64,000 nt of DNA from a virus. Its lineage: Duplodnaviria > Heunggongvirae > Uroviricota > Caudoviricetes. Positions 2,387-20,375 of the stretch are shown piece after piece. The notes below the pieces were generated by a model that saw only the letters and a list, made by a program, of their open reading frames with translations, made no database searches and was not told the DNA's origin. Position numbers and translations under genes: made by a program. The stretch lies in IMG/VR virus record IMGVR_UViG_3300033463_000024. One strand, written 5' to 3'. Position 1 is the first letter of the stretch; each line of letters starts with the position of its first letter.

Positions 2387-2434
2387 ACCGTGTCCCCCAG
2401 GTCCCCGTTCTTCGGGGACCTGGGGGACTATCGT
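2387..2434 (+). repeat. 48-bp element, copy 3 (perfect 16-bp stem)
   Basis: GTCCCCCAGGTCCCCG-TTCTT-CGGGGACCTGGGGGAC. Confidence 0.97.
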
Positions 2435-2463
2435 GTGGATGTAAGCAAAAAGGAGACAACATC

Positions 2464-3111
2464 ATGGACATTAAAGACAGCAAGTTTTTTGTCGCGGCAG
2501 ACCTCAAAATCCTCCGCGCACTCGGTTTCAGCAACCTTGAAGTCAATGTGGACACGGAAGGCGAATCGGAAGAAATCGCCCTCGGTGACGGTCAGTACCT
2601 TGTGGGCGAGAGGGGCGACCTCGGCACATCCTACTATGTGATTGACCGCGACTGCCACGAAGCGTTTACCCACGGCGAAACATCCATCATGGCCCTTGCG
2701 CACTACCAGGCGAGTTCATTGACCCACTACAACTACGATGAAATCCCGGACTATTTCTGGTGGTGGGAACTCCGCGAAATCTTCTTCCGCAAGAACAACA
2801 AGAAGGGCGTGAGCGCAAAGCGTTTCCAGAGGTACCGCGATGACATTGGCATGGCCGTGGTGTTCAGCGCGGACTGCAAGAAAGTGAAGCTCGCGAAGAA
2901 CAAGTTTTCCAAGTACGACAAGGACGGGTGCTATTCTCCCCTCCCGGACGAACTCCCGGCCTTTGACGAGTGGGAAACCATCAAGGACAATACAGGCAAG
3001 CCGCTTGTGGCCAACTGCGCCAAGGTGTTCGAGTCTAGCGTATTTGCCGAACGGTCACGTGCGCTCAACATCCTTCTCAAGAAGTTCTACAAGCGCATCA
3101 ACGGAAAATAA
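2464..3111 (+). CDS. hypothetical protein, paralogue of 3751-4410
   Basis: MDIKDSKFF...PLPDELPAFDEWE shared with downstream copy. Confidence 0.85.
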   Translation: MDIKDSKFFVAADLKILRALGFSNLEVNVDTEGESEEIALGDGQYLVGERGDLGTSYYVIDRDCHEAFTHGETSIMALAHYQASSLTHYNYDEIPDYFWWWELREIFFRKNNKKGVSAKRFQRYRDDIGMAVVFSADCKKVKLAKNKFSKYDKDGCYSPLPDELPAFDEWETIKDNTGKPLVANCAKVFESSVFAERSRALNILLKKFYKRINGK

Positions 3112-3133
3112 ATTTTCAAAAGGAGACAACATC

Positions 3134-3667
3134 ATGAAAGAAAAAGTTTACATTCAAGAATATGGCATCCGTGGTGGCATGGATGAACGTGCGGGTGAAA
3201 CAACCAAAATTGGTAGGCATCATGTAGATGACTGCCCGGAAAAAACCCTGTGGGACATGGTGCTCAACGAAATATCCGGTGGATATGAGCAACGCCTGTT
3301 CGTGAACGATGACGAATATGACATTGTTGGTTCGGATGAAGACATCAATGACCTTATTGAAGAAGGCATGGAATCGTTCAAGGAAGAGCACCACATTGGC
3401 ACGATTACCTCTATGGGCTACTATGACGATGTGTGGAGTGGAATCATGTCAGACCGCACCGAATACCGCATTGAAAAGGAAGTCATCAAGCCCACATTGG
3501 AACAGGTCAAGGAAGCTCTTTTCAAGTACCTTGAAACCCGTTTCGATGAAACGAAGGTTGTTGATGACTGGCACGATGTTTTGGTAGAAGGGTTGCAAGC
3601 AAGGTATATTACCAAGCAGGGACTCAAAGAAGACATCGAGCGCATATTCAACGGGGATGAGGTGTGA
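3134..3667 (+). CDS. hypothetical acidic protein
   Basis: Start moved to ATG after AAGGAGACAACATC. Confidence 0.8.
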   Translation: MKEKVYIQEYGIRGGMDERAGETTKIGRHHVDDCPEKTLWDMVLNEISGGYEQRLFVNDDEYDIVGSDEDINDLIEEGMESFKEEHHIGTITSMGYYDDVWSGIMSDRTEYRIEKEVIKPTLEQVKEALFKYLETRFDETKVVDDWHDVLVEGLQARYITKQGLKEDIERIFNGDEV

Positions 3668-3672
3668 CAGCA

Positions 3673-3720
3673 ACCGTGTCCCATGTGTCCCCGTTCTTCG
3701 GGGACCTGGGGGACTATCGT
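3673..3720 (+). repeat. 48-bp element, copy 4
   Basis: Same boxes, 38-bp spacer. Confidence 0.95.
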
Positions 3721-3750
3721 AATGGCGTAATCAAAAAAGGAGACAACATC

Positions 3751-4410
3751 ATGGACATCAAGGAAAGCAAGTATTTCACGGAAACAGACCTAAAGGTTCT
3801 TCGCGCCCTCGGTTTCAGGAAGCCGGAAGTTGAAGAAGGCGCCGACTATGGCGAGGAAATCTACCTCGGCAATGACACTTACCTGTACGGGCAACCGAAG
3901 GACATCGCATACGCCAGTACCGGCTATTACGACTACTTCGTATATGACCGCGATTCAGAAGAAAGCTATCGCCATACCGACCATGCTCTCATGGCAATCG
4001 CCGAGTTCATGGCGGGTCATCTTGCCTGCGATTTCTATGACGATATCCCAGACTTCTTTTGGCCGAATGAACTCCATACCATTACCACGCGCCTGAACCT
4101 GGTTCATAAGGTAGTGACCGTCAAGCGTTGCCAGACATGCCGCAGTGAACTTGGCTACGCCTTTGTCATCAACGGGGACGGTTCGCAGATAAAGATAGCA
4201 AAGAACAAGTTTACGAACGAAGACAATTACGGGAACTATGTTCCTCTGCCGGATGAACTTCCTGCATTTGACGAATGGGAAGCCATCATAGGCAAGGACG
4301 GTAAGCCGCTTGTGGCTGACTGTTCCCATGTGTTCAAGACGAGTTCCTACCGCGAGCAGTGCTGTTTGCTCAATCGTGTCGTGAAGGAACTTCATGACCG
4401 CATGGACTAA
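3751..4410 (+). CDS. hypothetical protein, paralogue of 2464-3111
   Basis: MDIKESKYF...PLPDELPAFDEWE; ATG after RBS. Confidence 0.85.
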   Translation: MDIKESKYFTETDLKVLRALGFRKPEVEEGADYGEEIYLGNDTYLYGQPKDIAYASTGYYDYFVYDRDSEESYRHTDHALMAIAEFMAGHLACDFYDDIPDFFWPNELHTITTRLNLVHKVVTVKRCQTCRSELGYAFVINGDGSQIKIAKNKFTNEDNYGNYVPLPDELPAFDEWEAIIGKDGKPLVADCSHVFKTSSYREQCCLLNRVVKELHDRMD

Positions 4411-4446
4411 AAATAAATTTTCATTTTTCAAAAAGGAGGTAATGCG

Positions 4447-4809
4447 ATGATAGTACATTCCGTTACTACGCTCAACAAGAACTGGGCATCTGCCAAGACC
4501 TTCCTAGTTGATGACATTCCCAAGCGTGTACACACGCTGAAAGATTGGGCTGAATACTTCATTGCCGATGGCGAGGAAGACAACGTCAGGGAAGTAGTTG
4601 TTTACGGTTCCGCGCCAGAGGTTACTGTGGTTCCCTATGACGGGAAGAATCCGACCTGCGATGCGGTTTCAAGTCTAATTGACGCCGATACGCAAAAGGT
4701 TGTAATCAAATGTATTGACGGGAACGTGCTTACCGCGACCGCATCCGTGTTTGAACACAACAGCGAGAGCGGTATATGGGTAGAATGCTCCCTGGTCGAA
4801 AATAAGTAA
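4447..4809 (+). CDS. hypothetical protein
   Basis: AAGGAGG RBS. Confidence 0.75.
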   Translation: MIVHSVTTLNKNWASAKTFLVDDIPKRVHTLKDWAEYFIADGEEDNVREVVVYGSAPEVTVVPYDGKNPTCDAVSSLIDADTQKVVIKCIDGNVLTATASVFEHNSESGIWVECSLVENK

Positions 4810-4820
4810 CCTATGAACCA

Positions 4821-4868
4821 ACCGTCCCCCGATCGATCCCGGCATGCCGGGACCTGGGGGATTATCGT
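4821..4868 (+). repeat. 48-bp element, copy 5
   Basis: Inner stem CCCGG-CATG-CCGGG. Confidence 0.95.
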
Positions 4869-4895
4869 GTTGGTACAAAACACAAGGAGACAAAC

Positions 4896-5150
4896 ATGAT
4901 TCAACATATTGCTTATTACAACGACCCTATCGACATCTTCGAGCTGATGAACAAGGATGCCAAGAGCATCGTCAATTATTACAAGAAGGGCAAGGGTGCG
5001 TATTTGCGCCCTAACGACCCTGATTACGCCCCTATACAGGGATGCCATCCGGTTATGGTGGGCAAGGAAAAGTGGTACGTCAAGAAGTCCATCGACCGTA
5101 CGAAACTTGATTCCGATGGCAACTACATCGACTTGTACAAAGCAATTTAG
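4896..5150 (+). CDS. hypothetical protein
   Basis: RBS after repeat. Confidence 0.75.
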   Translation: MIQHIAYYNDPIDIFELMNKDAKSIVNYYKKGKGAYLRPNDPDYAPIQGCHPVMVGKEKWYVKKSIDRTKLDSDGNYIDLYKAI

Positions 5151-5175
5151 CAAACATATCCAAAGGAGACAAACA

Positions 5176-5664
5176 ATGAAAGGCAATTTCGCAAAGTTGG
5201 CCATTTTGGTCAAGAATACTGTCCGCATGGACGAAGCATCAAAGATTATCGGAAGCCGTGATGAATCCGGCACAATCCTCTCCGAGCTTACCTCGCTTTT
5301 CTCGGTGACCATTGACGAGGAATTGGCTCACGCCATGAGGGCAAGCCTTTCCGGTCTTTCGCCCGATGACAAAATCTCTGTTGAGGAAAGCAAGTTTGAG
5401 ACTTCAACATCGAAGGATTCATCGGCAAAGCAGATTGACTACATCTTTATGCTCACGGGCAATTTCACGGGCGTTATCAAGTTGCGCCTTACATTCAATG
5501 TAGAAATGGGCAAAGTTGATTTCTACATGCAGACGCTGGCGCAGGATGATAGCGGCAAGGTAGTTGGTGAGAACAGTATCGGGGAAGACGAACTCTGCGG
5601 CATCCCGACCGCCCTCCCGATAGCTGTAACGTTCATGCTCAGGGACTGCAAAAAGAATGGATAA
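5176..5664 (+). CDS. hypothetical protein
   Basis: ATG after AAGGAGAC. Confidence 0.75.
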   Translation: MKGNFAKLAILVKNTVRMDEASKIIGSRDESGTILSELTSLFSVTIDEELAHAMRASLSGLSPDDKISVEESKFETSTSKDSSAKQIDYIFMLTGNFTGVIKLRLTFNVEMGKVDFYMQTLAQDDSGKVVGENSIGEDELCGIPTALPIAVTFMLRDCKKNG

Positions 5665-5667
5665 CCA

Positions 5668-5715
5668 ACCGTCTGCCGATCGATCCCGGTCCTTCGGGAC
5701 CTGGGGGAGCATCGT
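5668..5715 (+). repeat. 48-bp element, copy 6
   Basis: Same boxes, 38-bp spacer. Confidence 0.95.
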
Positions 5716-5742
5716 ATCAGCGCACACAAAAGGAGACAAACC

Positions 5743-6279
5743 ATGACAATCCACAATCTCATAAACGGCACCGCAACCCTCGACATTACTGTTGATGCCA
5801 AGAATCACGTTACCGCCGTGTTCAGCGACCCGAATACCTACGATGAACGCGAATTTACCGTGACCTGCAACACGGACAACGCGTTCATGGTGCTTCAAGA
5901 CATCATTGACCAGTTCGGTTTCGCAGATAACCCGTTCTTCAAGGCGTTTGGATGGGAACTGGAAGGCACAAAGGAAGCTACCGTAGCCAAGGAAGCCCCC
6001 CTCAATACCCCGACAAGAAAGCTTGAATACGGCGTGATTACGGCTTATCCGCACTCCGTCAAGTTCACGGCAATCCTCTCGGACATGAAGGGCGTGGCGG
6101 TCGCAGAAAGCCCGGAAATCATCTTCCTTAAGCCATCCCATCCGGCTTACATCCCGTGCAATGCATCGAGCGACAAGTTCGCCAAGCTAACCTCGTGGCT
6201 TGCAGAAAGGAACATCGCATACGAGACATCGGGCATTGCGGACTACGCCGAAACAATCTCGTTCCTGGTCGAAAAGTAG
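5743..6279 (+). CDS. hypothetical protein
   Basis: RBS after repeat. Confidence 0.8.
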   Translation: MTIHNLINGTATLDITVDAKNHVTAVFSDPNTYDEREFTVTCNTDNAFMVLQDIIDQFGFADNPFFKAFGWELEGTKEATVAKEAPLNTPTRKLEYGVITAYPHSVKFTAILSDMKGVAVAESPEIIFLKPSHPAYIPCNASSDKFAKLTSWLAERNIAYETSGIADYAETISFLVEK

Positions 6280-6283
6280 ACCG

Positions 6284-6331
6284 ACCGTATAGCCCAGGTG
6301 CCGGATGCCACGGCACCTGGGGGAACATCGT
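6284..6331 (+). repeat. 48-bp element, copy 7
   Basis: Compensated stem CCCAGGTGCCG/CGGCACCTGGG. Confidence 0.95.
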
Positions 6332-6368
6332 AACGGCATAACAAAACCAATCAAAAAGGAGACAACCC

Positions 6369-7049
6369 ATGAGTAAGAGTAAGATTAAAAAGTTCCCGCA
6401 TGAAATCGACTGTTGCCTGAAGAACGTGCATATCAAGGTCATCAAGACCCGTTCTCGCGGCAAGGACAAATACGTTTACGAAATCAGCGCAGACGGTACA
6501 GAACCGTTCATCCTCGACCCATGTTTGAGCTATGATGCAGGCGAATGCCCGGAATTTGAAGATACATGGTGCGGTGGCAAATGGGACAACGGCAAGTTCA
6601 AGGGTTGCGAATATGACATCAACATCATGGACAAGAGCGATTTCGGTGGCGAAACTGACGATGACAACGTTGGTCTCCGCGCCGCCATGTATGGTTGCGA
6701 AATTGTCGATGGTGAGACACAGACCAATACCAATGACGAAATCCCGTTCATCCCGGTAACATGCTGGTTCGAGAACAGCAAGGGCAAGCGCACCGAGTTC
6801 AAGTGCGATGACTCGGAAAACTTCGTTGAACTATTTGGCGAATGGGATGGTAAGAGACTCCCGACCGCCAAGGAACGCGAATTTACCGTCACGGGTACCC
6901 TCATGTTCGAGGTCACGTATGTCACGAAGGCGACCAACAGCGAAGATGCCAAGAAGGAAGCCTTCAAGCGACTAACCGAAATTTACCACAAGAAGGGTAT
7001 CGAAAATCTCGGAGTTCTCGGTAGCTTAACCATAAAAGAAAAACCATAA
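6369..7049 (+). CDS. hypothetical protein
   Basis: RBS after repeat. Confidence 0.8.
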   Translation: MSKSKIKKFPHEIDCCLKNVHIKVIKTRSRGKDKYVYEISADGTEPFILDPCLSYDAGECPEFEDTWCGGKWDNGKFKGCEYDINIMDKSDFGGETDDDNVGLRAAMYGCEIVDGETQTNTNDEIPFIPVTCWFENSKGKRTEFKCDDSENFVELFGEWDGKRLPTAKEREFTVTGTLMFEVTYVTKATNSEDAKKEAFKRLTEIYHKKGIENLGVLGSLTIKEKP

Positions 7050-7076
7050 AATATTTTTTGAAATTTGAGGTACAAC

Positions 7077-7469
7077 ATGGCCGAAACCAAACTCGAAACC
7101 ATCATCCGCGTAACCAAGGAACTTAATGCAATCAAGGCTAAACACCCGCGCATCATAGACATCGGAGTCATGAGCGTGGAAGAGTTCATGGATACGGTTG
7201 GCAAAGACCTTCCTGCATGCGTTGTGAAACCGCTGAAGCCGCATAATGGCGGGTATGCGGGCTACATCCGCATCAGGTGCTCCGATGAACTGAAACGCAA
7301 GTTGAACTGCCCGTCCATTTGGGAATATTTGTTCCATGACAAGGCAGAAGATGCCATCATCGGCGCGGTGCAGGTGCTCCATGCCGCCTGCCTCAACAGG
7401 AACAACCATGACGAGGCGAAGTTCCTCGGCGAGCTTTCCAGGGAACTCCACATCGACCGTGTAGCGTAG
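7077..7469 (+). CDS. hypothetical protein
   Basis: GAGG RBS; 3' end runs into repeat copy 8. Confidence 0.75.
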   Translation: MAETKLETIIRVTKELNAIKAKHPRIIDIGVMSVEEFMDTVGKDLPACVVKPLKPHNGGYAGYIRIRCSDELKRKLNCPSIWEYLFHDKAEDAIIGAVQVLHAACLNRNNHDEAKFLGELSRELHIDRVA

Positions 7470-7503
7470 CTACCCGGTCCCGTGGGACCTGGGGGATCAT
7501 CGT
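7456..7503 (+). repeat. 48-bp element, copy 8
   Basis: Same boxes, 38-bp spacer. Confidence 0.93.
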
Positions 7504-7530
7504 AAGGACGTAGCAAACAAGGAGACAAGC

Positions 7531-7767
7531 ATGGCCAAAATTAAAAAAGAAAAGACCCCGAAGCCAAAGAAGAAAAAAGTTCGCAAGGCTTACAATATCA
7601 AGTGGGACACCGATGGCGCAACGCTGAAGGAATGTGGACTCCCGCGTTCCGTGGTCATCCCTGATGGCGTTGCGGACGAAGATGTCGGGGACTGGCTCTC
7701 GGATGAATATGGCTACTGCCATGACGGGTACACGACTAACTTTGAAATGGAAGAAGATGAAGCCTAA
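7531..7767 (+). CDS. hypothetical phage protein
   Basis: RBS; basic N-terminus, acidic C-terminus. Confidence 0.75.
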   Translation: MAKIKKEKTPKPKKKKVRKAYNIKWDTDGATLKECGLPRSVVIPDGVADEDVGDWLSDEYGYCHDGYTTNFEMEEDEA

Positions 7768-7999
7768 TATTGAAATTGTAAGCATTGACCAATATCGCGG
7801 CTCGTTCCTCTTGCGAGTGAACGACCTCGATATTATCCCGAAAGTTCTCGCCCATATTGAACATGACAGCCCGATTGAAGGCGATGAACATAATGTCATT
7901 GTGATTGGTTCCAATATCGCAGTTGAAACAGACTGTGTTGGGCGAGCATCTTCATTGGCTAATGAACTGAAAGAAAAATTCAACCAAACGGAGGCTTAA
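7757..7999 (+). CDS. hypothetical protein
   Basis: Overlapping start in operon. Confidence 0.65.
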   Translation: MKPNIEIVSIDQYRGSFLLRVNDLDIIPKVLAHIEHDSPIEGDEHNVIVIGSNIAVETDCVGRASSLANELKEKFNQTEA

Positions 8000-8000
8000 C

Positions 8001-8354
8001 ATGTCTGATGGAAAAATCAAATGGGTTCCGGTACGTTTTCGCCACGCAATTTCATTTAACCCGATGGATGCCGAATTTGTGAAGGCGGGAAAGGAATCCG
8101 GCAGAGTCATGGAGGCGAGTCGAAAGAAGTTTGAGGACTACGGTGCCTGCCTCGCCGAATGCGAACGCCTCACAGATGCAGGCAACTGCGCCCGTTGGGA
8201 ATTTGCCTACCTCGCGAAGGAATTTGCCAAGAAGCTCAACGAGCTTGCAGATGACAAGCGTTTCTTCATGAAGGGCGTTGCTGACGAAACGCAGGACACA
8301 ATCTATGCGACCGCAAGAATGATTGAAACAATGGCACGCGAAATGGTGCAATAA
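8001..8354 (+). CDS. hypothetical protein
   Basis: GGAGG RBS. Confidence 0.75.
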   Translation: MSDGKIKWVPVRFRHAISFNPMDAEFVKAGKESGRVMEASRKKFEDYGACLAECERLTDAGNCARWEFAYLAKEFAKKLNELADDKRFFMKGVADETQDTIYATARMIETMAREMVQ

Positions 8355-8367
8355 TAGGAGACAACCA

Positions 8368-8793
8368 GTGACAAAGATTAAACTGACTGAACGCAAGTTC
8401 ACTCCGAACGAGCTGAAACAACTGAACTCCAAGACATACCTTTCCTGGAAGTGTACCCGCCAGACAATCATTATTGGGAATGACACCGATTTCGCCTTAT
8501 TTACAGTGAGCGAATGTCTCGGTTGTCCGCACCACTCAATCGGCATCACACCTATTGTGAAGCGTGGAGATAACGCATTGAAGGTGGTTGTATCCTTCAT
8601 GGACAAGGGGGAAGCCAAGCGGTTTTCCGCAATCGGTGCGACTACGGTAATGTTCACGACCGATGGTACTATTGCTGATGCGGTCGGCCTGGGTTCCGGT
8701 CTCGCCAAGGCACAGTACAAATTGTTGTACCAACTCCCGTGCGGAGCAGTCCGTGTGGGACGCGTACCGAAGAAACAAAAAGCTACCGTGTAG
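8368..8793 (+). CDS. hypothetical protein
   Basis: GTG after GGAGAC; ends inside repeat copy 9. Confidence 0.7.
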   Translation: MTKIKLTERKFTPNELKQLNSKTYLSWKCTRQTIIIGNDTDFALFTVSECLGCPHHSIGITPIVKRGDNALKVVVSFMDKGEAKRFSAIGATTVMFTTDGTIADAVGLGSGLAKAQYKLLYQLPCGAVRVGRVPKKQKATV

Positions 8794-8832
8794 CACGCCT
8801 CCCCGGTCCTTCGGGACCTGGGGGATCATCGT
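8785..8832 (+). repeat. 48-bp element, copy 9
   Basis: Same boxes, 38-bp spacer. Confidence 0.93.
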
Positions 8833-8872
8833 AATGGCATCGAAACGACTCATTCAACAAAAGGAGACAAAT

Positions 8873-9265
8873 ATGAGTATGTATGCAGTAATCGGATATG
8901 GATTCTCGGAAGTCCCGCGCAGGGAACTTGACGGAACCGCACACAAGGCATTCCCGGTCATCAACAGCGTTTCGCATTTTGACACCCGTGGCGGTGCCGT
9001 AGATGACGTTATCAAGCGCCTTGAAGACATCGTCAAGAATGCCGATGATGATGTTGTACTTTCTTCGTACGGCGTTACCGATGTGTCCTATGACGCCAAT
9101 GATAACCACCTTACGTATTCAAGGACTGTCTTCGATGAAGACCACCCGGAATCAAACCTCTTCGGGCTTCGTAAATGCATGGAGCTTTATGGCCACACCC
9201 ATGTCGAAGTGAAAGTCGGTGGCACCAAGGCAACCTACGCAATCGTCCGCGTCAAGGAGGACTAA
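8873..9265 (+). CDS. hypothetical protein
   Basis: ATG after RBS. Confidence 0.75.
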   Translation: MSMYAVIGYGFSEVPRRELDGTAHKAFPVINSVSHFDTRGGAVDDVIKRLEDIVKNADDDVVLSSYGVTDVSYDANDNHLTYSRTVFDEDHPESNLFGLRKCMELYGHTHVEVKVGGTKATYAIVRVKED

Positions 9266-9654
9266 TGATTACAAGACTCAACCTAAGCTGTATCGCCCGT
9301 GTCTATCCCTATGAATACATGGCATTTAGCGACACCTACGACAAGTTTTGTTCCAAGTACTCCGATGACGGGCAACTCGCAGAGCAATCCCGTTTCATGG
9401 TCAATGCGGCAACCAACCCTGATTACCGCGTTGATGATGAAGACGATGCCAAGTTTGTGAAGGCAATCAAGGCAGTCATCAATCGTTTTGCTACCGATGG
9501 CATCCGCGTGTTTCCGGCTGTCCTTGATACCGAAACGCAGTTTGAACTGTTCTTCGGAGTGGAAAATCCCTCGGATGAACTTCTCGCCCTCATGGGCGAC
9601 AATGTTCTTACCGAAGAATACGATGACTCCGATGAAGTCTTTGTTGCATGGTAA
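9265..9654 (+). CDS. hypothetical protein
   Basis: TAATG coupling, AGGAGG RBS. Confidence 0.75.
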   Translation: MITRLNLSCIARVYPYEYMAFSDTYDKFCSKYSDDGQLAEQSRFMVNAATNPDYRVDDEDDAKFVKAIKAVINRFATDGIRVFPAVLDTETQFELFFGVENPSDELLALMGDNVLTEEYDDSDEVFVAW

Positions 9655-9666
9655 GGAGGGACTGTA

Positions 9667-9885
9667 ATGATATGGAATCCACATGCGTACATCGTTTCAG
9701 TCAAGGGTACTACCGGGAATGGAGCGGTGTTTAATGCAAGCTTTACCCATTGTTCATCCAAGGAAGGCATTGACTTGGCGGACGAGCTGACAGATGCCGC
9801 CAATCATCACGACTACAACGTTGATGACAGCGGGATAAAGAATATTGTCATCATGGGCGTGTTCGACTGCGGAAAGAACAGCTAA
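9667..9885 (+). CDS. hypothetical protein
   Basis: AGGAGG RBS. Confidence 0.7.
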   Translation: MIWNPHAYIVSVKGTTGNGAVFNASFTHCSSKEGIDLADELTDAANHHDYNVDDSGIKNIVIMGVFDCGKNS

Positions 9886-9894
9886 CCGGTGGCA

Positions 9895-10610: not shown

Positions 10611-10624
10611 ATTTGTTGTCTCCA

Positions 10625-12595: not shown

Positions 12596-13263
12596 TGATT
12601 GACTTGGCTATTCCATTTTTCCAAGTAAGACGGTAGACCCCTCATAATCACATCGGGTCTACCGTCTTTTTCGTAGTCCCAGTTGCTAGGGGCAAACCTA
12701 TCGTCCCAATGATACAAGCCCTTGTGCTCGTCATCAAGGTCGGGTAGCTGTTCAAATCCTGCATCGGAATAGACCTTCGTGAGTCTGCCGATGTCGTAGT
12801 GGTCAAGGTGGTCGCCACCGAGTTCCTTCGCCTTCTCAATCATGGAGGGAGCAACGCCCCTGATGTTCGTATTGTTATGGACCGAAACGATGTCGCCATC
12901 GCCCTTGATGGCAAATCCTGCATCAAAGCCCGCGACCTTGTACAGACGGGTACCGGTTCCGGCATATTCTTCCTTGGTGTACCATGTCAATGCCGCGGGA
13001 TGTCTGGACTTGCGAAGCGACTCCATGAAAATCGGGTAGTCATGGTCAAGGTCGCCATTGGTGTCCCAAATCCCGTTACGGATATTGCTGAAGATTTCGG
13101 ATTCGGGCATGTCCTCCCCGGCTTCGTCAAGGATGTTGCTGAAAGCGGACTTGCGGTGTTCCGTAGTGGAGTCGCCAAACAAAGCGTTGTTGGCTTCCAA
13201 GCAAGCCTGTCTGAACTGCCCGTTTGCCGATTCCATGATTGCCTGATGCAATTTCGCCCACAT
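12592..13263 (-). CDS. hypothetical phage protein (possible GNAT-like fold)
   Basis: Long ORF opposite to neighbours; GFAIKGDGDIVSVHN...GGDHLDHYD...GRPDVIMR. Confidence 0.7.
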   Translation of the reverse strand: MWAKLHQAIMESANGQFRQACLEANNALFGDSTTEHRKSAFSNILDEAGEDMPESEIFSNIRNGIWDTNGDLDHDYPIFMESLRKSRHPAALTWYTKEEYAGTGTRLYKVAGFDAGFAIKGDGDIVSVHNNTNIRGVAPSMIEKAKELGGDHLDHYDIGRLTKVYSDAGFEQLPDLDDEHKGLYHWDDRFAPSNWDYEKDGRPDVIMRGLPSYLEKWNSQVNH

Positions 13264-13310
13264 AATAATACCTTACTGAATTTTACAGCAGTTTATAAGA
13301 TCCCGTCCCA

Positions 13311-13358
13311 ACCGTGTCCCATGTGTCCCCGATCTTCGGGGACCTGGGGGACCATCGT
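13311..13358 (+). repeat. 48-bp element, copy 11
   Basis: Same boxes, 38-bp spacer. Confidence 0.95.
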
Positions 13359-13384
13359 AACGGCATCAAACAAAGGAGACAAAC

Positions 13385-13699
13385 ATGCAAGTACCGTTTA
13401 AGGACAAGAAGAACTACCTCAAAGACGAATCCAGAAAACTAGAAGGCTTCGAAATGGGGTGGATCATGAAGGAGTACGATGATGCGGAACACGGAAACTC
13501 CGTATCTCTCTATGGCCTGAACAAGGGCCAGGCGTTTGATATCAGCAACAAAGGTGCCCGCGCCACCGTGGCATTAAAGTCCTGCTATGTCGTTGAATAC
13601 ATGTTCAACGAGACGAGCAATACCGTTGTGTTCACCGATGATGACCTGGAAGGTGCCATCGACTACACCCTCAAACTTATCGCCCTCGCGAAGGCATAA
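13385..13699 (+). CDS. hypothetical protein
   Basis: RBS after repeat. Confidence 0.75.
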   Translation: MQVPFKDKKNYLKDESRKLEGFEMGWIMKEYDDAEHGNSVSLYGLNKGQAFDISNKGARATVALKSCYVVEYMFNETSNTVVFTDDDLEGAIDYTLKLIALAKA

Positions 13700-13743
13700 G
13701 AGAACCGCAAGAAACGAAAGCATCAAACAAAGGAGACTACATC

Positions 13744-14172
13744 ATGCCCGAAATTAACGATGAAAACAAGCCGGAAGGCTACTTCATGCCTGAACATATC
13801 CCGCAGACCATCGAGGACATCCGCGTGGGCGATGTGTTCCATAGCCATTGTGTCGCAACGATGGCATGCAACTACTATTACAAGGTCATCAAGCGTACTG
13901 CAAAGTTCGTAACCCTGCGCGAATTGCGCTCGATTGAACGCGGTACCGGATTCTTCCAAGGCGTCCAGTATCCGATTGACGAGTTCATGGACCAGTCGTC
14001 CTGCTATAACAGACGCCGAAAGGAATACCCGGATGGAAAGGTCTATGCCGAGGTTACCCGCAGGCTCCCGACAGAACTCGACAGGGAAGGACGTATTTGG
14101 GTCAAACTTGAAGACTATGAATACGCAACCCCGTGGGATGGCAAACTCAACTATTTTGACCACGCAGACTAG
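13744..14172 (+). CDS. hypothetical phage protein
   Basis: AAGGAGAC RBS. Confidence 0.8.
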   Translation: MPEINDENKPEGYFMPEHIPQTIEDIRVGDVFHSHCVATMACNYYYKVIKRTAKFVTLRELRSIERGTGFFQGVQYPIDEFMDQSSCYNRRRKEYPDGKVYAEVTRRLPTELDREGRIWVKLEDYEYATPWDGKLNYFDHAD

Positions 14173-14181
14173 GAGTTCACT

Positions 14182-14229
14182 ACCGTGTCGAAATACCCCC
14201 GGTTCCATGGGGACCTGGGGGACTATCGT
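14182..14229 (+). repeat. 48-bp element, copy 12
   Basis: Same boxes, 38-bp spacer. Confidence 0.93.
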
Positions 14230-14259
14230 ATGGACATCACTCAAACAAAGGAGACAACC

Positions 14260-14646
14260 ATGTCAATCAAGAACAACAGAGTTTACATCGCCGTAGGCAT
14301 GTTCTGCGGTACTGACGATTCCGACCTTTTGGCCCCGGAAGTATACGAAAGCCGCGAGGATGCTCGCAAGGCTATCATCGAGGCAATTCTCGGCGCGGCA
14401 GCGAGTGCGGAACTCATGGACGAGGAAAGACACCTCGTCAAGGACGAGTTCGGCAACGATGACCGTGTGGTTGTCACGGTTCAAGGAATGGTCGATGGCA
14501 AGAATGTCATTGACGATTCCCTCACCGTGCTCACCGATGAAGAAATTGACAGGGTTGTCCCTGCCGATGTAAGGCGCATCACCATCAAGGACAATTCCTA
14601 TGATGAATACTGGACATGGGAAATCCATGAAAAGGCCATCGGCTAA
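14260..14646 (+). CDS. hypothetical protein
   Basis: ATG after RBS. Confidence 0.8.
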   Translation: MSIKNNRVYIAVGMFCGTDDSDLLAPEVYESREDARKAIIEAILGAAASAELMDEERHLVKDEFGNDDRVVVTVQGMVDGKNVIDDSLTVLTDEEIDRVVPADVRRITIKDNSYDEYWTWEIHEKAIG

Positions 14647-14657
14647 GGAGGCACAAT

Positions 14658-15173
14658 ATGGGAACACGCTCTACAATCGGATTCCGTTCCGGCAATGAAG
14701 TCCGCTACATCTATGTGGCAACCGATGGCTTCAACCACGGCGCAACACTTGAAAAGATTGGACATGACGCATGTCTAAAACTTTGGGAGCAAATCGGCGA
14801 AGCCGAGAAAAACGGGCAGAAGGTATGGCTGGACCACCTCTATACCGATGATGTGCTTCCTATTGACTGGGCGGTCGTTCAGCCAAATGCGCGTACCCCG
14901 ATTGTCGCGTCCGAAAAGAACTGGAGCAAGGCATATCTTGAAACCCAGTCCTTCCAGTTGAGCGGCATCGTCAAGGTGGAAACGAACTGGAAGAATAAAG
15001 TCAGCCCGTTCGACCTGATGCACCTTATCAACATGGAAGGAACCGTGTGGCTCTATGACCTGGACAGCGACAAGGTGTTCTTCATGGGCGACCCCGGCGT
15101 TGTCGAAGACCTGGTGTACAACCACAAACCCGCAAGTTCCACCGGAATTGTAAAAAAGCAGATCGAGTTCTAG
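14658..15173 (+). CDS. hypothetical phage protein
   Basis: AGGAGG RBS; MGTRSTIG N-terminus. Confidence 0.8.
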   Translation: MGTRSTIGFRSGNEVRYIYVATDGFNHGATLEKIGHDACLKLWEQIGEAEKNGQKVWLDHLYTDDVLPIDWAVVQPNARTPIVASEKNWSKAYLETQSFQLSGIVKVETNWKNKVSPFDLMHLINMEGTVWLYDLDSDKVFFMGDPGVVEDLVYNHKPASSTGIVKKQIEF

Positions 15174-15176
15174 ACA

Positions 15177-15224
15177 ACCGTGCCGGGAATCCCCCGGATC
15201 CACGGGGGCCTGGGGGCTCATCGT
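15177..15224 (+). repeat. 48-bp element, copy 13
   Basis: Stem CCCCCG/CGGGGG. Confidence 0.93.
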
Positions 15225-15251
15225 AATGGCGTACCAAACAAGGAGAACAAC

Positions 15252-15740
15252 ATGCAGAAACTGATTTTCTTCCATACCTACATGGGAGCCCGGTGTGACA
15301 GTCCGTTCAAGGGTAAAAAGCCTGTGGATGTGCTCGGCTACGGGAAGATGGTAAAGCCGCGCACAGTCGATCCCAAGACCGTACTGGGCAAGCTTTTCGG
15401 CATTGGCAACAGCATGATGGAGCCGATGTCTAATGAATGGATTGCCGATGAACTCAACATGTCTAGCATTAGACAGCCCGAAGTCACCCGCCTTATCCAT
15501 GAAAATGTGGACGAAAGCCGGATGATTGACTGGGTTTCCGAAGAAGACGATGGAAGCTGCGAAGACGGTTTCCCGATGCGTAAGTTCGTGGACGCATACT
15601 TTTTCTCGAAGGACGATTGCGACCGCGTTGTGGGCATCCTCAACCAAAAGTTTACCGCCATGGCAAAACGCCAGGCCAAGCGCGAGAACAAGACACTTGA
15701 ACAGGTCGCCAAGGAACTCGGCGCCGAACTCGAAGCATAG
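15252..15740 (+). CDS. hypothetical protein
   Basis: ATG after AAGGAG. Confidence 0.8.
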   Translation: MQKLIFFHTYMGARCDSPFKGKKPVDVLGYGKMVKPRTVDPKTVLGKLFGIGNSMMEPMSNEWIADELNMSSIRQPEVTRLIHENVDESRMIDWVSEEDDGSCEDGFPMRKFVDAYFFSKDDCDRVVGILNQKFTAMAKRQAKRENKTLEQVAKELGAELEA

Positions 15741-15744
15741 ACCT

Positions 15745-15792
15745 ACCGTCCGACTATGCGCCCGGATCCACGGGGACCTGGGGGCACATCGT
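15745..15792 (+). repeat. 48-bp element, copy 14
   Basis: Same boxes, 38-bp spacer. Confidence 0.93.
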
Positions 15793-15820
15793 ATGAGCAT
15801 AACAAACAAGGAGACATATC

Positions 15821-15982
15821 ATGATTTACGATTTTGCACAACAATCTCCGCGAATCCTTATCGACGAAGGCGATGGGCACCTTGTGGACCGTAGAACCGC
15901 AGACAATCTTAAAAACGGGAATCCCATATTTTATAGCACGGACGAAAACGGGCACGCCGTTCCGGCATTCAACAAGGAGTAA
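15821..15982 (+). CDS. small hypothetical protein (53 aa)
   Basis: AAGGAGAC RBS, MIYDFAQQ...FNKE*. Confidence 0.65.
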   Translation: MIYDFAQQSPRILIDEGDGHLVDRRTADNLKNGNPIFYSTDENGHAVPAFNKE

Positions 15983-15985
15983 ACA

Positions 15986-16816
15986 ATGAAACATTCCAAG
16001 ACCGTAATTACATTTCCGTACGACATGGCATGCGACATCAAGTACCTTCCCACTAGCCGCCACAAGAAGCCGCATACTATCCGTGGTAGCCACCGCGTAT
16101 GCGGAAGCATCCCAGTCCTTGAAGAAAAGGACTTCCCGCTTGCATTCACTGTGACTACTTACCGCACCGTCTGCCCGAAAGCAAAGACACAGAAAGACCT
16201 CTCCGAACACCTCCCGACCAAGGCCGGGTACTTCCCCATCCATGTCCGCGCATACAATGGCAAGTTCTACAGACAGTACCAGTACGGATTCGGCACAGTC
16301 GAAACCACGTGCGGGGCCAAGTGCGGAGTCAAGAACGTGGAAGGGTTCAGATATGAAGTGGAACGCTATTTCGCATCGCGAAACTACGGAATCAAGATGA
16401 CCCCGCCGGAAACTGGCAAGTTCCTTGACAAATCCATTCAGCTTGAAGAACACATATACGAGTTGTCCAAAATGCAGTCGGACGATAGAAAATGCTTCAT
16501 CGAGTTCTGCAATCAATATGTAAGTTTCAAGGGAAAGCTTTGGGTTGAATGTGGCGAGCCGTTCTACCACTACATGACATTCGGCATGGGTCATGGCAAC
16601 GGCGGTACAGCGTTCTTCGTGGGATTCGCGAAGCAATGGCTTACATGGCACGAGGGAAGTAACGTGTACAACGCCTTCCATCGCGAAAAATGTCTCAAGA
16701 AAGCCCGCGAAATCGCAACCCGGCGGGGCGACAGCATGAACCTGCTGAACAACCCGAAGGAGAATATTCAAGTTTTCCTCCCGAAACTTGTAAAAATCAA
16801 GGAAAATATTTTCTAA
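15986..16816 (+). CDS. hypothetical phage protein
   Basis: AAGGAG RBS, 276 aa. Confidence 0.8.
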   Translation: MKHSKTVITFPYDMACDIKYLPTSRHKKPHTIRGSHRVCGSIPVLEEKDFPLAFTVTTYRTVCPKAKTQKDLSEHLPTKAGYFPIHVRAYNGKFYRQYQYGFGTVETTCGAKCGVKNVEGFRYEVERYFASRNYGIKMTPPETGKFLDKSIQLEEHIYELSKMQSDDRKCFIEFCNQYVSFKGKLWVECGEPFYHYMTFGMGHGNGGTAFFVGFAKQWLTWHEGSNVYNAFHREKCLKKAREIATRRGDSMNLLNNPKENIQVFLPKLVKIKENIF

Positions 16817-16828
16817 ATTACGATTTAC

Positions 16829-16875
16829 TAAATCGTGATTTGGTAGATTTGTTGTCTCCGCGTCCCCCTGTCCCA
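16829..16875 (+). repeat. 47-bp direct repeat, left copy (flanks endonuclease)
   Basis: TAAATCGTGATTTGGTAGATTTGTTGTCTCCGCGTCCCCCTGTCCCA; 1 mismatch to 18207-18253. Confidence 0.95.
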
Positions 16876-16961
16876 CCGTTACGATATGGTTCTCACCCGG
16901 TTCTCATTGAGGAACCATACGGTGCTACGAGGGGGATATAATATATGTAAAAGGAGTATCT

Positions 16962-18209
16962 ATGGGATATACTTGTGGTCGTCATTTAACTAAAACTCTA
17001 TGTAGGCGTATAGCGAAAACATGTAGCACAATTACTGAATTTGCGAAAAAAGATATCCCCGCATATAACAAAGCATTAGCCAATGGATGGCTTGATGAAT
17101 GGTTTATCCGACTATCCCACAAACCTTTTACTAAAGAAGATTGCTTACTTATAGCAAAACAATGTTCATCTCGTGCTGAGTTTAAGCGTAAATCTCACGC
17201 GGCTTATAACAATGCATTACAGAATGGGTGGATAGATGAATATGCATGGTTCAAAACAACAGCCGAACTTAGACGGGAAAGACGCACCTTTACCGATGAT
17301 GATGTAATTAACGCATCTAAGAAATATACTAAACTAAGTGATTTTTCCAAAGCTGAACCGGCCCGTTGTGCTATGGCATATAAAAGAGGTTTAATTAATA
17401 AAATGCCGTGGCTAACTCGTAATGCTGAAGTAATGAACCGAAAATGCCTTGATTGTGTTTATGTTTATGAATTTTCGCTACATAAAGTTGCTTATATCGG
17501 ACGTTCGGTAGAACCACATTGCCGAGACATTAAGCATCATAAGTCTACCGATGTCGTTGCTCGCTATGCAATAGCTCACCATTTGCAAATTCCAACGATG
17601 AAAATTCTTAAAGATGGCATCACTTATAAACAAGGGGCAATGCTAGAAGCTAAAATGATGCAGACTTATATCAACCGCGGCTGGCATCTTTTAAATAAAG
17701 CACCGGCGGGAAGTATTGGTGGACTAGGTGCCGGAAAACTTACTAAAACCTATTGTATCAATGTCGCTCGTAAATACGCCACGGTTGCCGAGCTAGTAGC
17801 TAATGATGGTTCAGTATATAACAAATTATGCAAATGTAAATGGCTTTCGGAATGCGATTGGCTTCATAAGAAACATGTCCCTAAAGGAACTTGGAGCAAT
17901 ATGTCAAAGGAAGAACTTTTATTGGAAGCCCGTAAATATTCCTCTCGAAATGAATTAATGGATAAATTGAAAAGCGTGTATGAGATTATTCGCGCAAATG
18001 GATGGATGCCCGAAGTATTCCCGAATAGCCTCAGTGCGCCTAAAAAGGTTGCCCAATGCACAACAGATGGGAGACTCATTTGTATTCATAATTCAATTAG
18101 TGATGCCGCTAAAGCGTTAAACACTAAGAATCCGTGTATTTCGGCAATTTGCCGTGGAGTACCCGGTAAGCACACTTGCAAAGGGTTTACATTTAAGTTC
18201 GTGGAGTAA
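16962..18209 (+). CDS. GIY-YIG-type homing endonuclease with helical repeats and C-terminal NUMOD1-like HTH
   Basis: CVYVY...AYIGRS motif; five ~38-aa repeats; VAQCTTDG...SISDAAKAL...ISAICRG...KGFTFKF; visibly AT-richer DNA. Confidence 0.8.
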   Translation: MGYTCGRHLTKTLCRRIAKTCSTITEFAKKDIPAYNKALANGWLDEWFIRLSHKPFTKEDCLLIAKQCSSRAEFKRKSHAAYNNALQNGWIDEYAWFKTTAELRRERRTFTDDDVINASKKYTKLSDFSKAEPARCAMAYKRGLINKMPWLTRNAEVMNRKCLDCVYVYEFSLHKVAYIGRSVEPHCRDIKHHKSTDVVARYAIAHHLQIPTMKILKDGITYKQGAMLEAKMMQTYINRGWHLLNKAPAGSIGGLGAGKLTKTYCINVARKYATVAELVANDGSVYNKLCKCKWLSECDWLHKKHVPKGTWSNMSKEELLLEARKYSSRNELMDKLKSVYEIIRANGWMPEVFPNSLSAPKKVAQCTTDGRLICIHNSISDAAKALNTKNPCISAICRGVPGKHTCKGFTFKFVE

Positions 18210-18253
18210 ATCGTGATTTGGTAGATTTGTTGTCTCCACGTCCCCCTGTCCCC
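18207..18253 (+). repeat. 47-bp direct repeat, right copy
   Basis: Starts with the endonuclease stop codon; overlaps repeat copy 15. Confidence 0.95.
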
Positions 18254-18282
18254 ATTGTCTCCGGGGACACGGGGGATTATCG
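18235..18282 (+). repeat. 48-bp element, copy 15 (degenerate)
   Basis: CCCCCTGTCCC...GGGACACGGGGG-ATT-ATCGT; ACCGT box missing. Confidence 0.75.
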
Positions 18283-18323
18283 TAAAGGCACAAACAATAA
18301 CCACTTAGCAAAAGGAAACAGTC

Positions 18324-19009: not shown

Positions 19010-19038
19010 TTGCCAAAGCTGGCAATAAGTGCTATATT
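19010..19038 (+). promoter_or_regulatory. sigma70-like promoter (class II) for tRNA
   Basis: TTGCCA-N17-TATATT. Confidence 0.75.
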
Positions 19039-19053
19039 TGCTCTCGAAATCAC

Positions 19054-19125
19054 GCGCTCGTGGTGTAATGGACAGCACATCAGCTTCCGAAGCTGATAAT
19101 TCCAGTTCGAAGCTGGACGAGCGTA
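19054..19125 (+). tRNA. tRNA-Arg(CCG)
   Basis: GCGCTCG/CGAGCGT acceptor, TCAGC-TTCCGAA-GCTGA anticodon arm, TCCAG-TTCGAAG-CTGGA T arm; no encoded CCA. Confidence 0.9.
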
Positions 19126-19275
19126 CTAATGGAACTGGACCCCTGAATGGTGCAAATTTGATATACCATGCCCGTGAAAGCGAGCGATGGAACTCAAACA
19201 CCCAAACAACCAAACACCATCTATCAAACCTTGCGCCTGGGCCCGGTACCATCAATTCTACATCATGAAACCCAG

Positions 19276-19304
19276 AGACACGGGAATGGTCCCGTGTCTT
19301 TTTT
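19276..19304 (+). terminator. intrinsic terminator
   Basis: AGACACGGGA-ATGG-TCCCGTGTCT followed by T-run. Confidence 0.8.
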
Positions 19305-19312
19305 CGTATGCT

Positions 19313-19360
19313 ACCGTGTACCGATGGTTCCAGGTCTCCCAGGACCTGGGGGAACATCGT
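19313..19360 (+). repeat. 48-bp element, copy 16
   Basis: Stem CCAGGTC/GACCTGG. Confidence 0.93.
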
Positions 19361-19400
19361 AGCGGCGACTAAAACAGAAACCCTTTCAAGGAGACACATC

Positions 19401-20033
19401 ATGAAAAGACTCAACAGGCTTCTCGCCGCAATCAAGAAATTCTCTTCTGTGGACAATGTTGCCCGCTACATTCACGGTATCAAGTTTGACCTCAACCGAC
19501 AGACAATCGAGGCAACCGATGGCAATGCCGGAATAATTGTCAAGGGTAGCAAGGGACTTGTTGCCGCGATGGCAAATGAATATGCCGAACATCTTGGGCT
19601 TGAACCGGTCGGGGGCGACTTTGGTGTAGTCAAGCTCGCCCCGGCAAACGGCAAGATGTGGCCTAATGCCGAACGCCTCGATAAGGAAAATACGCTTAAG
19701 GCAGACTTGCGCAAGTGCCTCAGTTTCGAACACGACCCGAAAACGAACAATTACGCACATATTCACAATGGCCAGTTCCAGCGTCTCAATCAGTTCTGCA
19801 AGGTGGTCAAGGTGCCGTTGAAGCTCATTCCGGGCATGACATATCTCGCCCCTGTCATGCAATATGGAAAGAGCAAGTTCAATGGTGAAGAAATCTACTT
19901 CTGCATCGCACAGATGCCGAAATTCCGCGCTCTATATGACGCACAGGACAATCTCATTACCACCTGTGTCCAGTATGAAAGCATGGATGAAATCGACAAT
20001 GAAGCCATGCAGGTGTTCAAGCAGATGGCATAA
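19401..20033 (+). CDS. hypothetical protein
   Basis: ATG after AAGGAGAC. Confidence 0.8.
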   Translation: MKRLNRLLAAIKKFSSVDNVARYIHGIKFDLNRQTIEATDGNAGIIVKGSKGLVAAMANEYAEHLGLEPVGGDFGVVKLAPANGKMWPNAERLDKENTLKADLRKCLSFEHDPKTNNYAHIHNGQFQRLNQFCKVVKVPLKLIPGMTYLAPVMQYGKSKFNGEEIYFCIAQMPKFRALYDAQDNLITTCVQYESMDEIDNEAMQVFKQMA

Positions 20034-20039
20034 GGGGAA

Positions 20040-20312
20040 TTGATGGATAACAAGACAGAAAGCTTCTATTTCAACTTCGCATATTCTCTTTTCGGAAAGA
20101 GAAATCCATACGCAAGATACCGCGATATATTCGGTCGAGTGACCGTCCCTGCCGGACCGGATGCCAAGCAAGCCGCGATGGACAAGATTGCCACCAAGTT
20201 CAACAGGCACGAATGGGGCTTCCTGTACACGCAGGAGCAATTTGACACCTTCCCGTCCAAGCCGTGGTGGAAGGGTACAGAAAGGGTCATGGACTTCGAC
20301 GATCTGAAATGA
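20040..20312 (+). CDS. hypothetical protein
   Basis: Operon position. Confidence 0.7.
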   Translation: MMDNKTESFYFNFAYSLFGKRNPYARYRDIFGRVTVPAGPDAKQAAMDKIATKFNRHEWGFLYTQEQFDTFPSKPWWKGTERVMDFDDLK

Positions 20313-20327
20313 TCAATGATTTGGCCC

Positions 20328-20375
20328 GCCGTGTAGACAACCCTCCCGGTCTTCGGGGGCCTGGGGGATTATCGT
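20328..20375 (+). repeat. 48-bp element, copy 17
   Basis: GCCGT-N38-ATCGT. Confidence 0.9.

Follow-up and report, generated by a model that had tools for sequence, protein, structure and literature searches.

What is preserved when a hairpin changes from copy to copy, the pairing or something beside it? The question is raised by an intergenic repeat in the genome of a tailed phage (Caudoviricetes), found in a stretch of 64,000 nucleotides (nt) of the IMG/VR virus record IMGVR_UViG_3300033463_000024. The whole stretch is called the window, and coordinates refer to it. A sequence-only reading had proposed that compensatory changes keep the hairpin, and that the structure itself is selected. Base-pairing, and not sequence alone, is maintained at the family level, and a two-helix hairpin is supported; but the structure is one component beside sequence boxes which are more constrained. 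Rather than being the full signal, the hairpin seems to belong to a composite regulatory cassette, because the strongest constraint falls on boxes laid out like a promoter before a ribosome-binding site (RBS).

A repeat family on one strand and in one block

Searched for repeats, the first 24 kb yielded a family of ~70-nt units, with 17 copies on the + strand. The core GGGGGNNNATCGT matches 20 times in the window (240–26583), always on the + strand; 4.3 matches are expected, and none of 100 shuffled sequences has as many. In the whole contig, oriented like the window, 35 copies were found, all on the gene strand and none beyond 42.5 kb. The same 35 copies were returned by a covariance model made from the family, which in the remaining ~160 kb matched only reverse-strand echoes of the most palindromic ones. 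Copies in the window span 205–26583 (Table 1), and 15 more reside upstream in the genome. The range 2387–20375 previously assigned to the repeat does hold copies, and is too small.

A Shine-Dalgarno (SD) sequence and a start codon follow every copy, 23–48 nt past the terminal ATCGT (median 29.5). Spacing to the upstream stop codon is looser (-14 to 76 nt, often 3–15 nt).

Sequence boxes

Elements are described on an 85-nt extract, numbered so that the GGGGG run begins at position 45. The 5' end features C8 and box 1 (ACCGTGT, 10–16), followed by a variable, C-rich 5' arm (17–30) and by a loop (~31–35). The 3' arm corresponds to GGGACCTGGGGG (38–49) and is separated by a purine-A dinucleotide from box 2 (CATCGT, 52–57). 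ACCGTGT, GGGACCTGGGGG and CATCGT are near-invariant. Elements in this genome and in its relatives (see below) provided 168 distinct copies in fixed register. A purine occupies position 58 in 167 of them, positions 59–62 are purine-rich, and positions 63 and 64 are pyrimidine and purine, respectively, in 97–98%; residues 63–65 thus form a pyrimidine-purine-T step, beyond which an A-rich stretch, the AAGGAGA motif and the start codon are found in this order.

The distance between the boxes is constant in 31 of the 35 copies of the contig, and in 168/211 copies overall. In three of the exceptions in the contig the spacing differs by one or two bases; the fourth is copy 15, with a degenerate box 1. 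Invariance of box 2 is not an artefact of the search, because ATCGT is in place in 183/189 copies gathered without requiring it. Almost all variation, also between orthologues, is found in the 5' arm and the loop, and the 3' arm hardly varies. Constraint is strongest in the sequence boxes of this arm and of the flanks.

A third, degenerate ANCGT-like box (RNYRT) is found at element positions 61–65 (as at 3724–3728), 8 nt past box 2. The most frequent subfamily has the sequence GGGAACGTTCAA in this region, with the palindrome GAACGTTC inside. This box could be the context of a start site, or a separate binding site.

Base pairing of the stems

The structure was assessed in 150 distinct copies, aligned without gaps, and has three components: P0 (column pairs 5-52, 6-51 and 8-49), P1 (columns 9–14 with 43–48) and P2 (columns 17–25 with 31–39). 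Paired cells are 80.3%, versus 76.2 ± 0.4% in shuffled alignments and 37–54% in controls in which the register had been slid. Cells changed on both sides are 146, versus 64.9 ± 8.2 in shuffled and 19–80 in slid alignments. Neither observed value was reached in any of 500 shuffles. Covariation is seen at one pair of the outer helix, 12-45 (UA 57, CG 21, AU 7, GC 4), and at pairs 17-39 (AU 47, GU 47, GC 12), 20-36 (UA 65, CG 34), 21-35 (CG 59, UG 41, GC 29) and 22-34 (CG 132, UA 8).

Arms were also compared as cognate and chimeric combinations, because stem registers shift between subfamilies. Cognate arms fold at -11.1 kcal/mol on average, chimeric arms at -8.7 (p = 5e-13), and arms paired to a shuffled 5' arm at -6.8. 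At least 6–8 distinct self-complementary inner stems were recognized, in which both arms are altered and still pair, including GTCCCC/GGGGAC, GGCGCC/GGCGCC, GCTCC/GGAGC, GTGTCC/GGACAC, GGTGCC/GGCACC and GCCCCC/GGGGGC. Given these stems and the advantage of cognate arms, compensation is real, as had been supposed. The stems formerly described in copies 3, 5, 7, 13 and 15 (2387–18283) are all present. What is conserved is an inner helix of 5–9 bp and an outer helix of 6 bp, the register being shifted by one base. The 16-bp stem of copy 3 is perfect and unique; its outer half is not shared by the family.

Z-scores of the 20 window copies range from -6.67 to +0.67 (mean -1.76). Mutual information in fixed register, calculated on 31 copies of the contig, was noisy, and the gapless orthologue pairs recovered (10) were too few for a substitution test.

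Complementarity might also persist in a structure which is not selected, if a palindromic ancestor, gene conversion and quasi-palindrome template switching preserved it, and the boxes alone were functional. Segments are indeed exchanged between copies (in one orthologue pair the 5' arm has been replaced as a block), many stems have decayed, and, with the sequence of the 3' arm fixed, drift is left to the 5' arm alone. Such an origin is nevertheless improbable: the inner stems changed on both arms remain paired, changes on both sides occur twice as often as in shuffles, and are specific to the register proposed, and pair 12-45 of the outer helix covaries.

On the + strand, G-T pairs (208, plus one invariant G-T) outnumber A-C oppositions (125). 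By RNA parameters, folding of the + strand is favoured over that of the - strand by 1.5 kcal/mol (102/150 copies, p = 6e-9); by DNA parameters both strands fold equally. Extrusion of all 48 nt as a cruciform would cost from +25 to +64 kcal/mol (mean +49, a rough upper bound). Between the cruciform or single-stranded DNA signal and the RNA stem considered in the sequence-only reading, folding as RNA, or on a single strand, is thus mildly favoured; the cruciform is costly for most copies, and the short inner stem might still be extruded.

Terminators and RNA families

Elements are not intrinsic terminators, because no U-tract follows the hairpin, as had been noted: in the 168 copies, T residues are ~20% of the 12 nt after the hairpin and form no run. 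Terminators are not enriched (19 found, 23.3 expected). Elements reach no gathering threshold in Rfam; window matches at threshold are tRNAs and one transfer-messenger RNA (tmRNA) only, and the best sub-threshold matches on copy 3 are chance hairpin matches.

A proposed composite of promoter and stem-loop

The reading that we tentatively favour, at somewhat less than an even chance, is that the element is a composite regulatory linker, in which a phage-specific promoter lacking the sigma-70 consensus, an overlapping stem-loop and a recombination joint are combined. The model is provided by the promoter-early stem-loops (PeSLs; Arbiol, Comeau and Krisch) of the T4-type phages RB49/phi1, T4/PST and KVP40/nt-1, in which a promoter is associated with a G/C-tract stem-loop, located mostly between or over the promoter boxes; PeSLs reside in regions rich in ORFans (genes without a known family), and serve as terminators and recombination points (PMC2839356, PMC4122927).

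The element would link the gene cassettes of a block of ORFans, presumably early or host-takeover genes. Its 3' half, made by GGGACCTGGGGG, the purine-A dinucleotide, CATCGT, 6 nt and the pyrimidine-purine step, may be the promoter. CATCGT would be a -10-like hexamer, with invariant A and T in second and sixth position, and the G-rich box would take the place of a -35 region. Factors of the sigma-70 family recognize, by flipping them out, the A in position 2 and the T in position 6 of the -10 hexamer. Transcription would start ~7 nt past the hexamer, giving a leader of 16–41 nt with a strong RBS. CATCGT, six bases and the pyrimidine-purine step reproduce the geometry of the genome's own leaderless promoters. 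Host core polymerase, together with a phage factor, would recognize the promoter; two sigma genes are present.

Because the hairpin overlaps the promoter, it would be confined to RNA reading through from the upstream cassette. In such RNA the 48 nt would fold into the two-helix hairpin, box 1 being paired to the promoter core. The hairpin may reduce read-through, or shield the upstream message at its 3' end, and each cassette would thereby be insulated. The ~70-nt conserved unit would be a joint for homologous recombination, at which cassettes are gained, lost, duplicated and swapped.

The surroundings of copy 16 and the end of the block are in keeping with a promoter. Copy 16 starts 12 nt behind a strong intrinsic terminator (Table 1). 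From there to the next canonical promoter (22503) lie six genes, for which the elements are the sole candidate promoters. The element block ends at a sigma factor gene. A class of genes ending at a sigma gene is the usual layout for hand-over to the next class.

Several observations weigh against this interpretation. Promoter activity and start site are predictions. No -35-like element is found at the right distance, and the motif fits no promoter class known to us. Four canonical promoters of the same strand, at -14899, 11853, 19010 and 22503, could drive long polycistronic RNAs, making an internal promoter unnecessary. A hairpin lacking a U-tract is not expected to terminate bacterial polymerase efficiently. 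By estimate, the contig covers only ~52% of the genome; a phage polymerase may therefore be encoded outside it. Six of the 20 window copies, about a third, fold like shuffled sequences (z near zero), and RNAalifold returned an empty consensus structure for the alignment, because stem registers shift between subfamilies. Opposite to box 2, the nearly invariant box 1 always retains one C-C mismatch and one G-T wobble, and pairing alone therefore does not account for it. Neither the invariance of box 1, with its fixed mismatch and wobble, nor the third ANCGT-like box is explained by a composite linker.

Other promoter classes were compared to the boxes. Sigma-70 promoters are not enriched in the block (21 found, 23.9 expected), and the spacings of sigma-54 and extracytoplasmic function (ECF) promoters, compared by eye, do not fit. 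A 17-bp spacing between ACCGTG and CATCGT, obtained by looping out a hairpin of 19 nt, was considered and dropped, as the extruded lengths would differ between copies.

A possible signal acting on RNA only

It is possible, though rather doubtful, that the element features no promoter and works on RNA only. Polycistronic transcripts would be cut at or beside the hairpin, which would protect the upstream 3' end; the endonuclease could come from the host or the phage, and be sequence-specific or similar to RNase III or RNase E, as for the RNase III sites of T7 early RNAs and the stabilizers of the repetitive extragenic palindrome (REP) type. The canonical same-strand promoters listed above would supply long RNAs, and the hairpin mostly starts 3–15 nt past the upstream stop codon. 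The helices, ~10 and 6–9 bp long, flank an internal loop which is asymmetric and conserved on its 3' side. T7 RNase III sites have a comparable layout, with two helices around an internal loop. The excess of G-U over A-C pairs, the better fold of the + strand and the A-rich single-stranded stretch beyond the hairpin point in the same direction. Like the T7 early sites, and the REPs and bacterial interspersed mosaic elements (BIMEs) which stabilize messages, the elements are irregular intercistronic hairpins of ~20 bp, have an internal loop, are multicopy and lack a U-tract. In contrast to them, elements feature strict boxes, a single orientation and a fixed distance to the start codon, and one copy lies behind a terminator. 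Little read-through RNA is expected at copy 16, right behind that terminator, and spacing is tighter to the downstream start codon than to the upstream stop. Moreover, the boxes are the most conserved residues, with a -10-like A/T pattern and a pyrimidine-purine step at the right distance, no RNase III gene was found on the contig, and a third of the copies fold weakly.

A hairpin possibly recognized as DNA

Promoters of phages N4 and LUZ7 feature a stem of 4–7 bp and a conserved 3-nt loop, centred 11–15 nt from the start; N4-type genomes have 3–9 such promoters at one end, read by a virion polymerase of 3,500 aa (PMC4496689, PMC9163698). The N4 virion polymerase had been offered as a precedent for the repeat, and the element does not fit a promoter of that kind. 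Loop columns are the least conserved (0.1–0.4 bits), no conserved 3-nt loop is found, the geometry is wrong, copies are 35–50, and no gene for a giant RNA polymerase was found on the contig, which is incomplete.

A broader possibility, unlikely in our judgement, is that the N4/LUZ7 principle has been scaled up, and that a DNA hairpin, extruded by supercoiling or formed on a single strand, is recognized by a phage or virion polymerase or by a sigma holoenzyme. Conserved stem positions coexist with freely covarying ones, as in N4 promoters (PMC4496689), and stems are GC-rich as in the LUZ7 middle promoters, with an invariant purine after a conserved 20-nt block (PMC9163698). Elements and N4/LUZ7 promoters share a GC-rich hairpin beside a conserved sequence upstream of early genes, stem positions that are conserved or compensate, and a purine after the conserved block. 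The distance between the boxes is invariant, the outer helix covers the start of the -10-like hexamer, and, the contig being incomplete, a polymerase could be encoded elsewhere. In contrast to the conserved 3-nt loop of N4 and LUZ7, the loop is variable (4–10 nt), and the hairpin centre lies at least 25 nt from the end of the conserved block and 25–31 nt from a plausible start, rather than 11–15 nt. Genes for T7-like, multisubunit or giant RNA polymerases were not found on the contig, which is ~52% complete; its largest open reading frame (ORF) encodes NrdD (907 aa). The PF00940 profile has no match on this incomplete contig, and its control matched in no genome either. Energies argue likewise against a cruciform of the whole element, costly because the stems are interrupted, and six of 20 copies fold like shuffles.

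A variant, quite unlikely as well, makes the DNA stem-loop itself part of promoter recognition, either extruded from freshly injected supercoiled DNA or formed on a single strand. The base of the hairpin would present the invariant A of CATCGT at the junction between duplex and single strand. Recognition would be by host core polymerase carrying a phage sigma, or by an undiscovered phage polymerase. If so, a giant phage would run ~35–50 early promoters on an N4-like structural principle, switched off as the DNA relaxes.

Relatives and cassette exchange

Relatives of the phage were identified in rumen metagenomes. A Megablast search of 24 kb found no match in phage and plasmid collections. In IMG/VR, a 14-base core pattern gave single chance matches only, and no related copy; a long pattern gave one chance match, within a high-GC coding region. 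The sigma protein had one distant match only, and the terminase matched in IMG/VR one 38-kb fragment (70% identical) and otherwise relatives at ~35%. A metagenome scan with the pattern ACCGT-N26-28-CCTGGGGGNNNATCGT identified multi-copy loci on rumen-type contigs. JAEEGJ010001900.1 (398,643 bp) and JAEEGL013721786.1 (299,887 bp) have at least 40 exact matches each, and further multi-copy loci reside in contigs Ga0310690, Ga0265300, Ga0265301, Ga0310786, RHMF01 and JAEIGA01. The pattern may thus be used as a sequence tag, as it finds related giant phages in metagenomes. Relatives are syntenic to the block and 83–96% identical; one contig is 99.9% identical.

Synteny breakpoints cluster in the elements. 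Ends of high-scoring segment pairs fall inside elements in 37 of 116 cases, against an expectation of 8.4%. Homology to the relatives begins at element positions 2–10, and stops at positions 64–87. At ~15175–15241 relatives have an extra cassette of ~1 kb between two copies, and a single copy is found here. Cassettes 2387–3672 and 3673–4820 are tandem paralogues, marked by 236-nt and 97-nt repeats (71–78% identity, spacing ~1,290 nt), and are consistent with duplication via exchange between flanking elements.

A gene of 415 aa (16962–18209), assigned to a PHROG of unknown function, lies between two 46-nt direct repeats (16829–18252). It is missing from both large relatives, which carry one intact copy 15, and its insertion site is the 5' arm of this copy. 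No canonical box 1 is present in copy 15 of the relatives either.

The element may, alternatively, be a site-specific recombination site, integron-like or similar to REPs mobilized by REP-associated tyrosine transposases (RAYTs), and folded as single-stranded DNA. Integron attC sites, the second precedent formerly invoked, resemble the element in marking cassette boundaries in a single orientation, and in having conserved, imperfectly paired ends around a variable centre that keeps its structure. Cassette insertions and deletions are bounded by elements, the complementary ends retain invariant mismatches, and genes of the IS200/IS605 type are present in the genome. This alternative is nonetheless very improbable. 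Element ends are CCACCGTGT and ACATCGTGG, which are not the RYYYAAC/GTTRRRY cores of attC, and neither IntI nor another tyrosine recombinase was found on the contig (PF00589 had no match there, and its controls did match). The position relative to the downstream RBS is strict, and the junctions, spread over positions 2–10 and 64–87, have the pattern of homologous rather than site-specific exchange. The attC precedent does not hold.

Likeness to promoter-early stem-loops

Cassette exchange leads back to the composite linker and its PeSL model. Like PeSLs, the element is a repeated intergenic unit (~70–100 nt) of an ORFan-rich, hyperplastic region, and the SD and start codon of the following gene form its end. 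A G/C-tract stem-loop lies over, between or beside the promoter-like boxes (mean z -1.76; six of 20 copies near 0). Relatives differ by cassettes inserted, deleted or replaced, with junctions in the elements, and tandem duplications occur.

Unlike PeSLs, the element has no sigma-70 consensus, as it features only the -10-like A and T in positions 2 and 6 and no -35, and it has no AT-rich UP region. Sigma-70-type promoters of this genome (TTGCCA-N14-TGCTAYATT) form a class of their own, at other sites. Two helices spanning 48 nt make the hairpin larger than that of PeSLs; a conserved box serves as its 3' arm, and another, at a fixed spacing of 38 bp, makes up its 5' end. While PeSLs are known from T4-type phages, the element resides in an uncultivated rumen jumbo phage, and its activity is predicted. 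By analogy, it is best viewed as a functional counterpart of PeSLs, a new variant and not a member, because the sigma-70 consensus of PeSLs is missing.

Phage, neighbouring genes and other features

The window belongs to an IMG/VR virus contig of 203,111 bp, the completeness of which is ~52% as estimated by CheckV. Genes for the large terminase, NrdD, a NAD-ligase and a Dda-like helicase are present, and the phage is an uncultivated rumen jumbo phage, of a clade with genomes of ~400 kb. Genes behind the elements match no Pfam or PHROG family, with three exceptions: a pentapeptide-repeat-like protein, an FtsK/SpoIIIE-like ATPase and, behind the last copy, a divergent factor of the sigma-70 family. 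A second sigma gene, RpoD-like (~100 bits to the RpoD C-terminal model), is located on the + strand at L010:1348-2160, and has a TTGACA...TATATT promoter upstream.

TTGCCA-N14-TGCTAYATT promoters are a very uniform class, present in ~40 copies contig-wide (including 11853, 19010, 22503 and 29247 on the + strand). Of these, 28 are on the - strand outside the block, and 4 on the + strand inside. They are often leaderless, as the first base of the ATG lies 7 nt after the -10.

Table 1. Element copies of the window and features next to them. Copies are measured from box 1 to box 2 (48 nt).
Feature	Position	Strand	Scores	Remarks
Copy 1	205–252	+	70.3 bits; z -2.22	ACCGT (box 1) to ATCGT (box 2)
Copy 2	628–675	+	z -3.68	
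Copy 3	2387–2434	+	-39.3 kcal/mol; z -6.67	sole perfect 16-bp stem, 5-nt loop (stem-loop 2392–2428)
Copy 4	3673–3720	+		heads the tandem paralogue of the preceding cassette
Copy 5	4821–4868	+		inner stem CCCGG/CCGGG, shifted register
Copy 6	5668–5715	+	z -0.41	weak fold
Copy 7	6284–6331	+	z -3.26	compensated inner stem CCCAGGTGCCG/CGGCACCTGGG (GGTGCCG/CGGCACC)
Copy 8	7456–7503	+	z +0.10	fold not above shuffles
Copy 9	8785–8832	+		
Copy 10	9895–9942	+	76 bits	complete two-helix fold
Copy 11	13311–13358	+		
Copy 12	14182–14229	+		
Copy 13	15177–15224	+		stem CCCCCG/CGGGGG; site of the extra ~1-kb cassette of a relative
Copy 14	15745–15792	+		
Copy 15	18236–18283	+	24 bits; z -3.60	degenerate box 1; 3' box altered to CACGGGGG, 5' arm matching; stem arms CCCCCTGTCCCC/GGGGACACGGGGG
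Copy 16	19313–19360	+		right behind the strong intrinsic terminator
Copy 17	20328–20375	+	z +0.67	
Copy 18	24210–24257	+		
Copy 19	24848–24895	+		precedes the FtsK/SpoIIIE-like gene
Copy 20	26536–26583	+	z -0.10	last; precedes the sigma factor gene; boxes intact, hairpin weak
Promoter of the other class	19010–19038	+		example of TTGCCA-N14-TGCTAYATT; further + strand starts at 11853, 22503
Intrinsic terminator, canonical	19274–19301	+		12-bp stem and T-run; after the tRNA gene; shows the normal terminator of the genome
Phage sigma-70-family factor	26629–27408	+		259 aa, divergent; directly behind copy 20

Other features of the window were noted. A tRNA gene (19054–19125) is found within the element block, and has a promoter of its own, TTGCCA-N14-TGCTATATT; the terminator that follows it ends 12 nt before copy 16. 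An AT-rich island of 3.4 kb (10000–13300, 41% GC) is devoid of elements. It includes a repeated AT-rich upstream region (11350–11398 and 11608–11656, 92% identical), and a leaderless canonical promoter (11853–11881) which precedes a gene of the N-formylglutamate-amidohydrolase family (11888–12595); ~840 nt (10781–11624) are swapped for a shorter stretch in the relatives. Just past the element block, a gene of 428 aa (29877–31163, + strand) matches transposase PHROGs (phrog_506, E 2.6e-45; TnpB/OrfB-like). On the - strand, a tmRNA gene (50865–51227, 106 bits) and five tRNA genes are found in an ORF-free stretch of 5 kb (48187–51619). Atlas look-ups of two large proteins of no known function gave nothing usable.

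Implications

If the composite linker is what the elements are, a clade of rumen phages with genomes of ~400 kb would organize accessory genes as plug-in cassettes, each provided with the same compact linker, which would start its own transcript, insulate it from the neighbour and offer a recombination joint. The design of the T4-type PeSLs would have been re-invented with a different promoter specificity. Elements would define a transcription class, an early or host-takeover ORFan regulon ending at the sigma gene, and the boxes would be candidates for a new promoter motif, read by a phage sigma factor or a co-factor. As a sequence tag, the element leads to related giant phages, and to their pools of accessory genes, in metagenomes.

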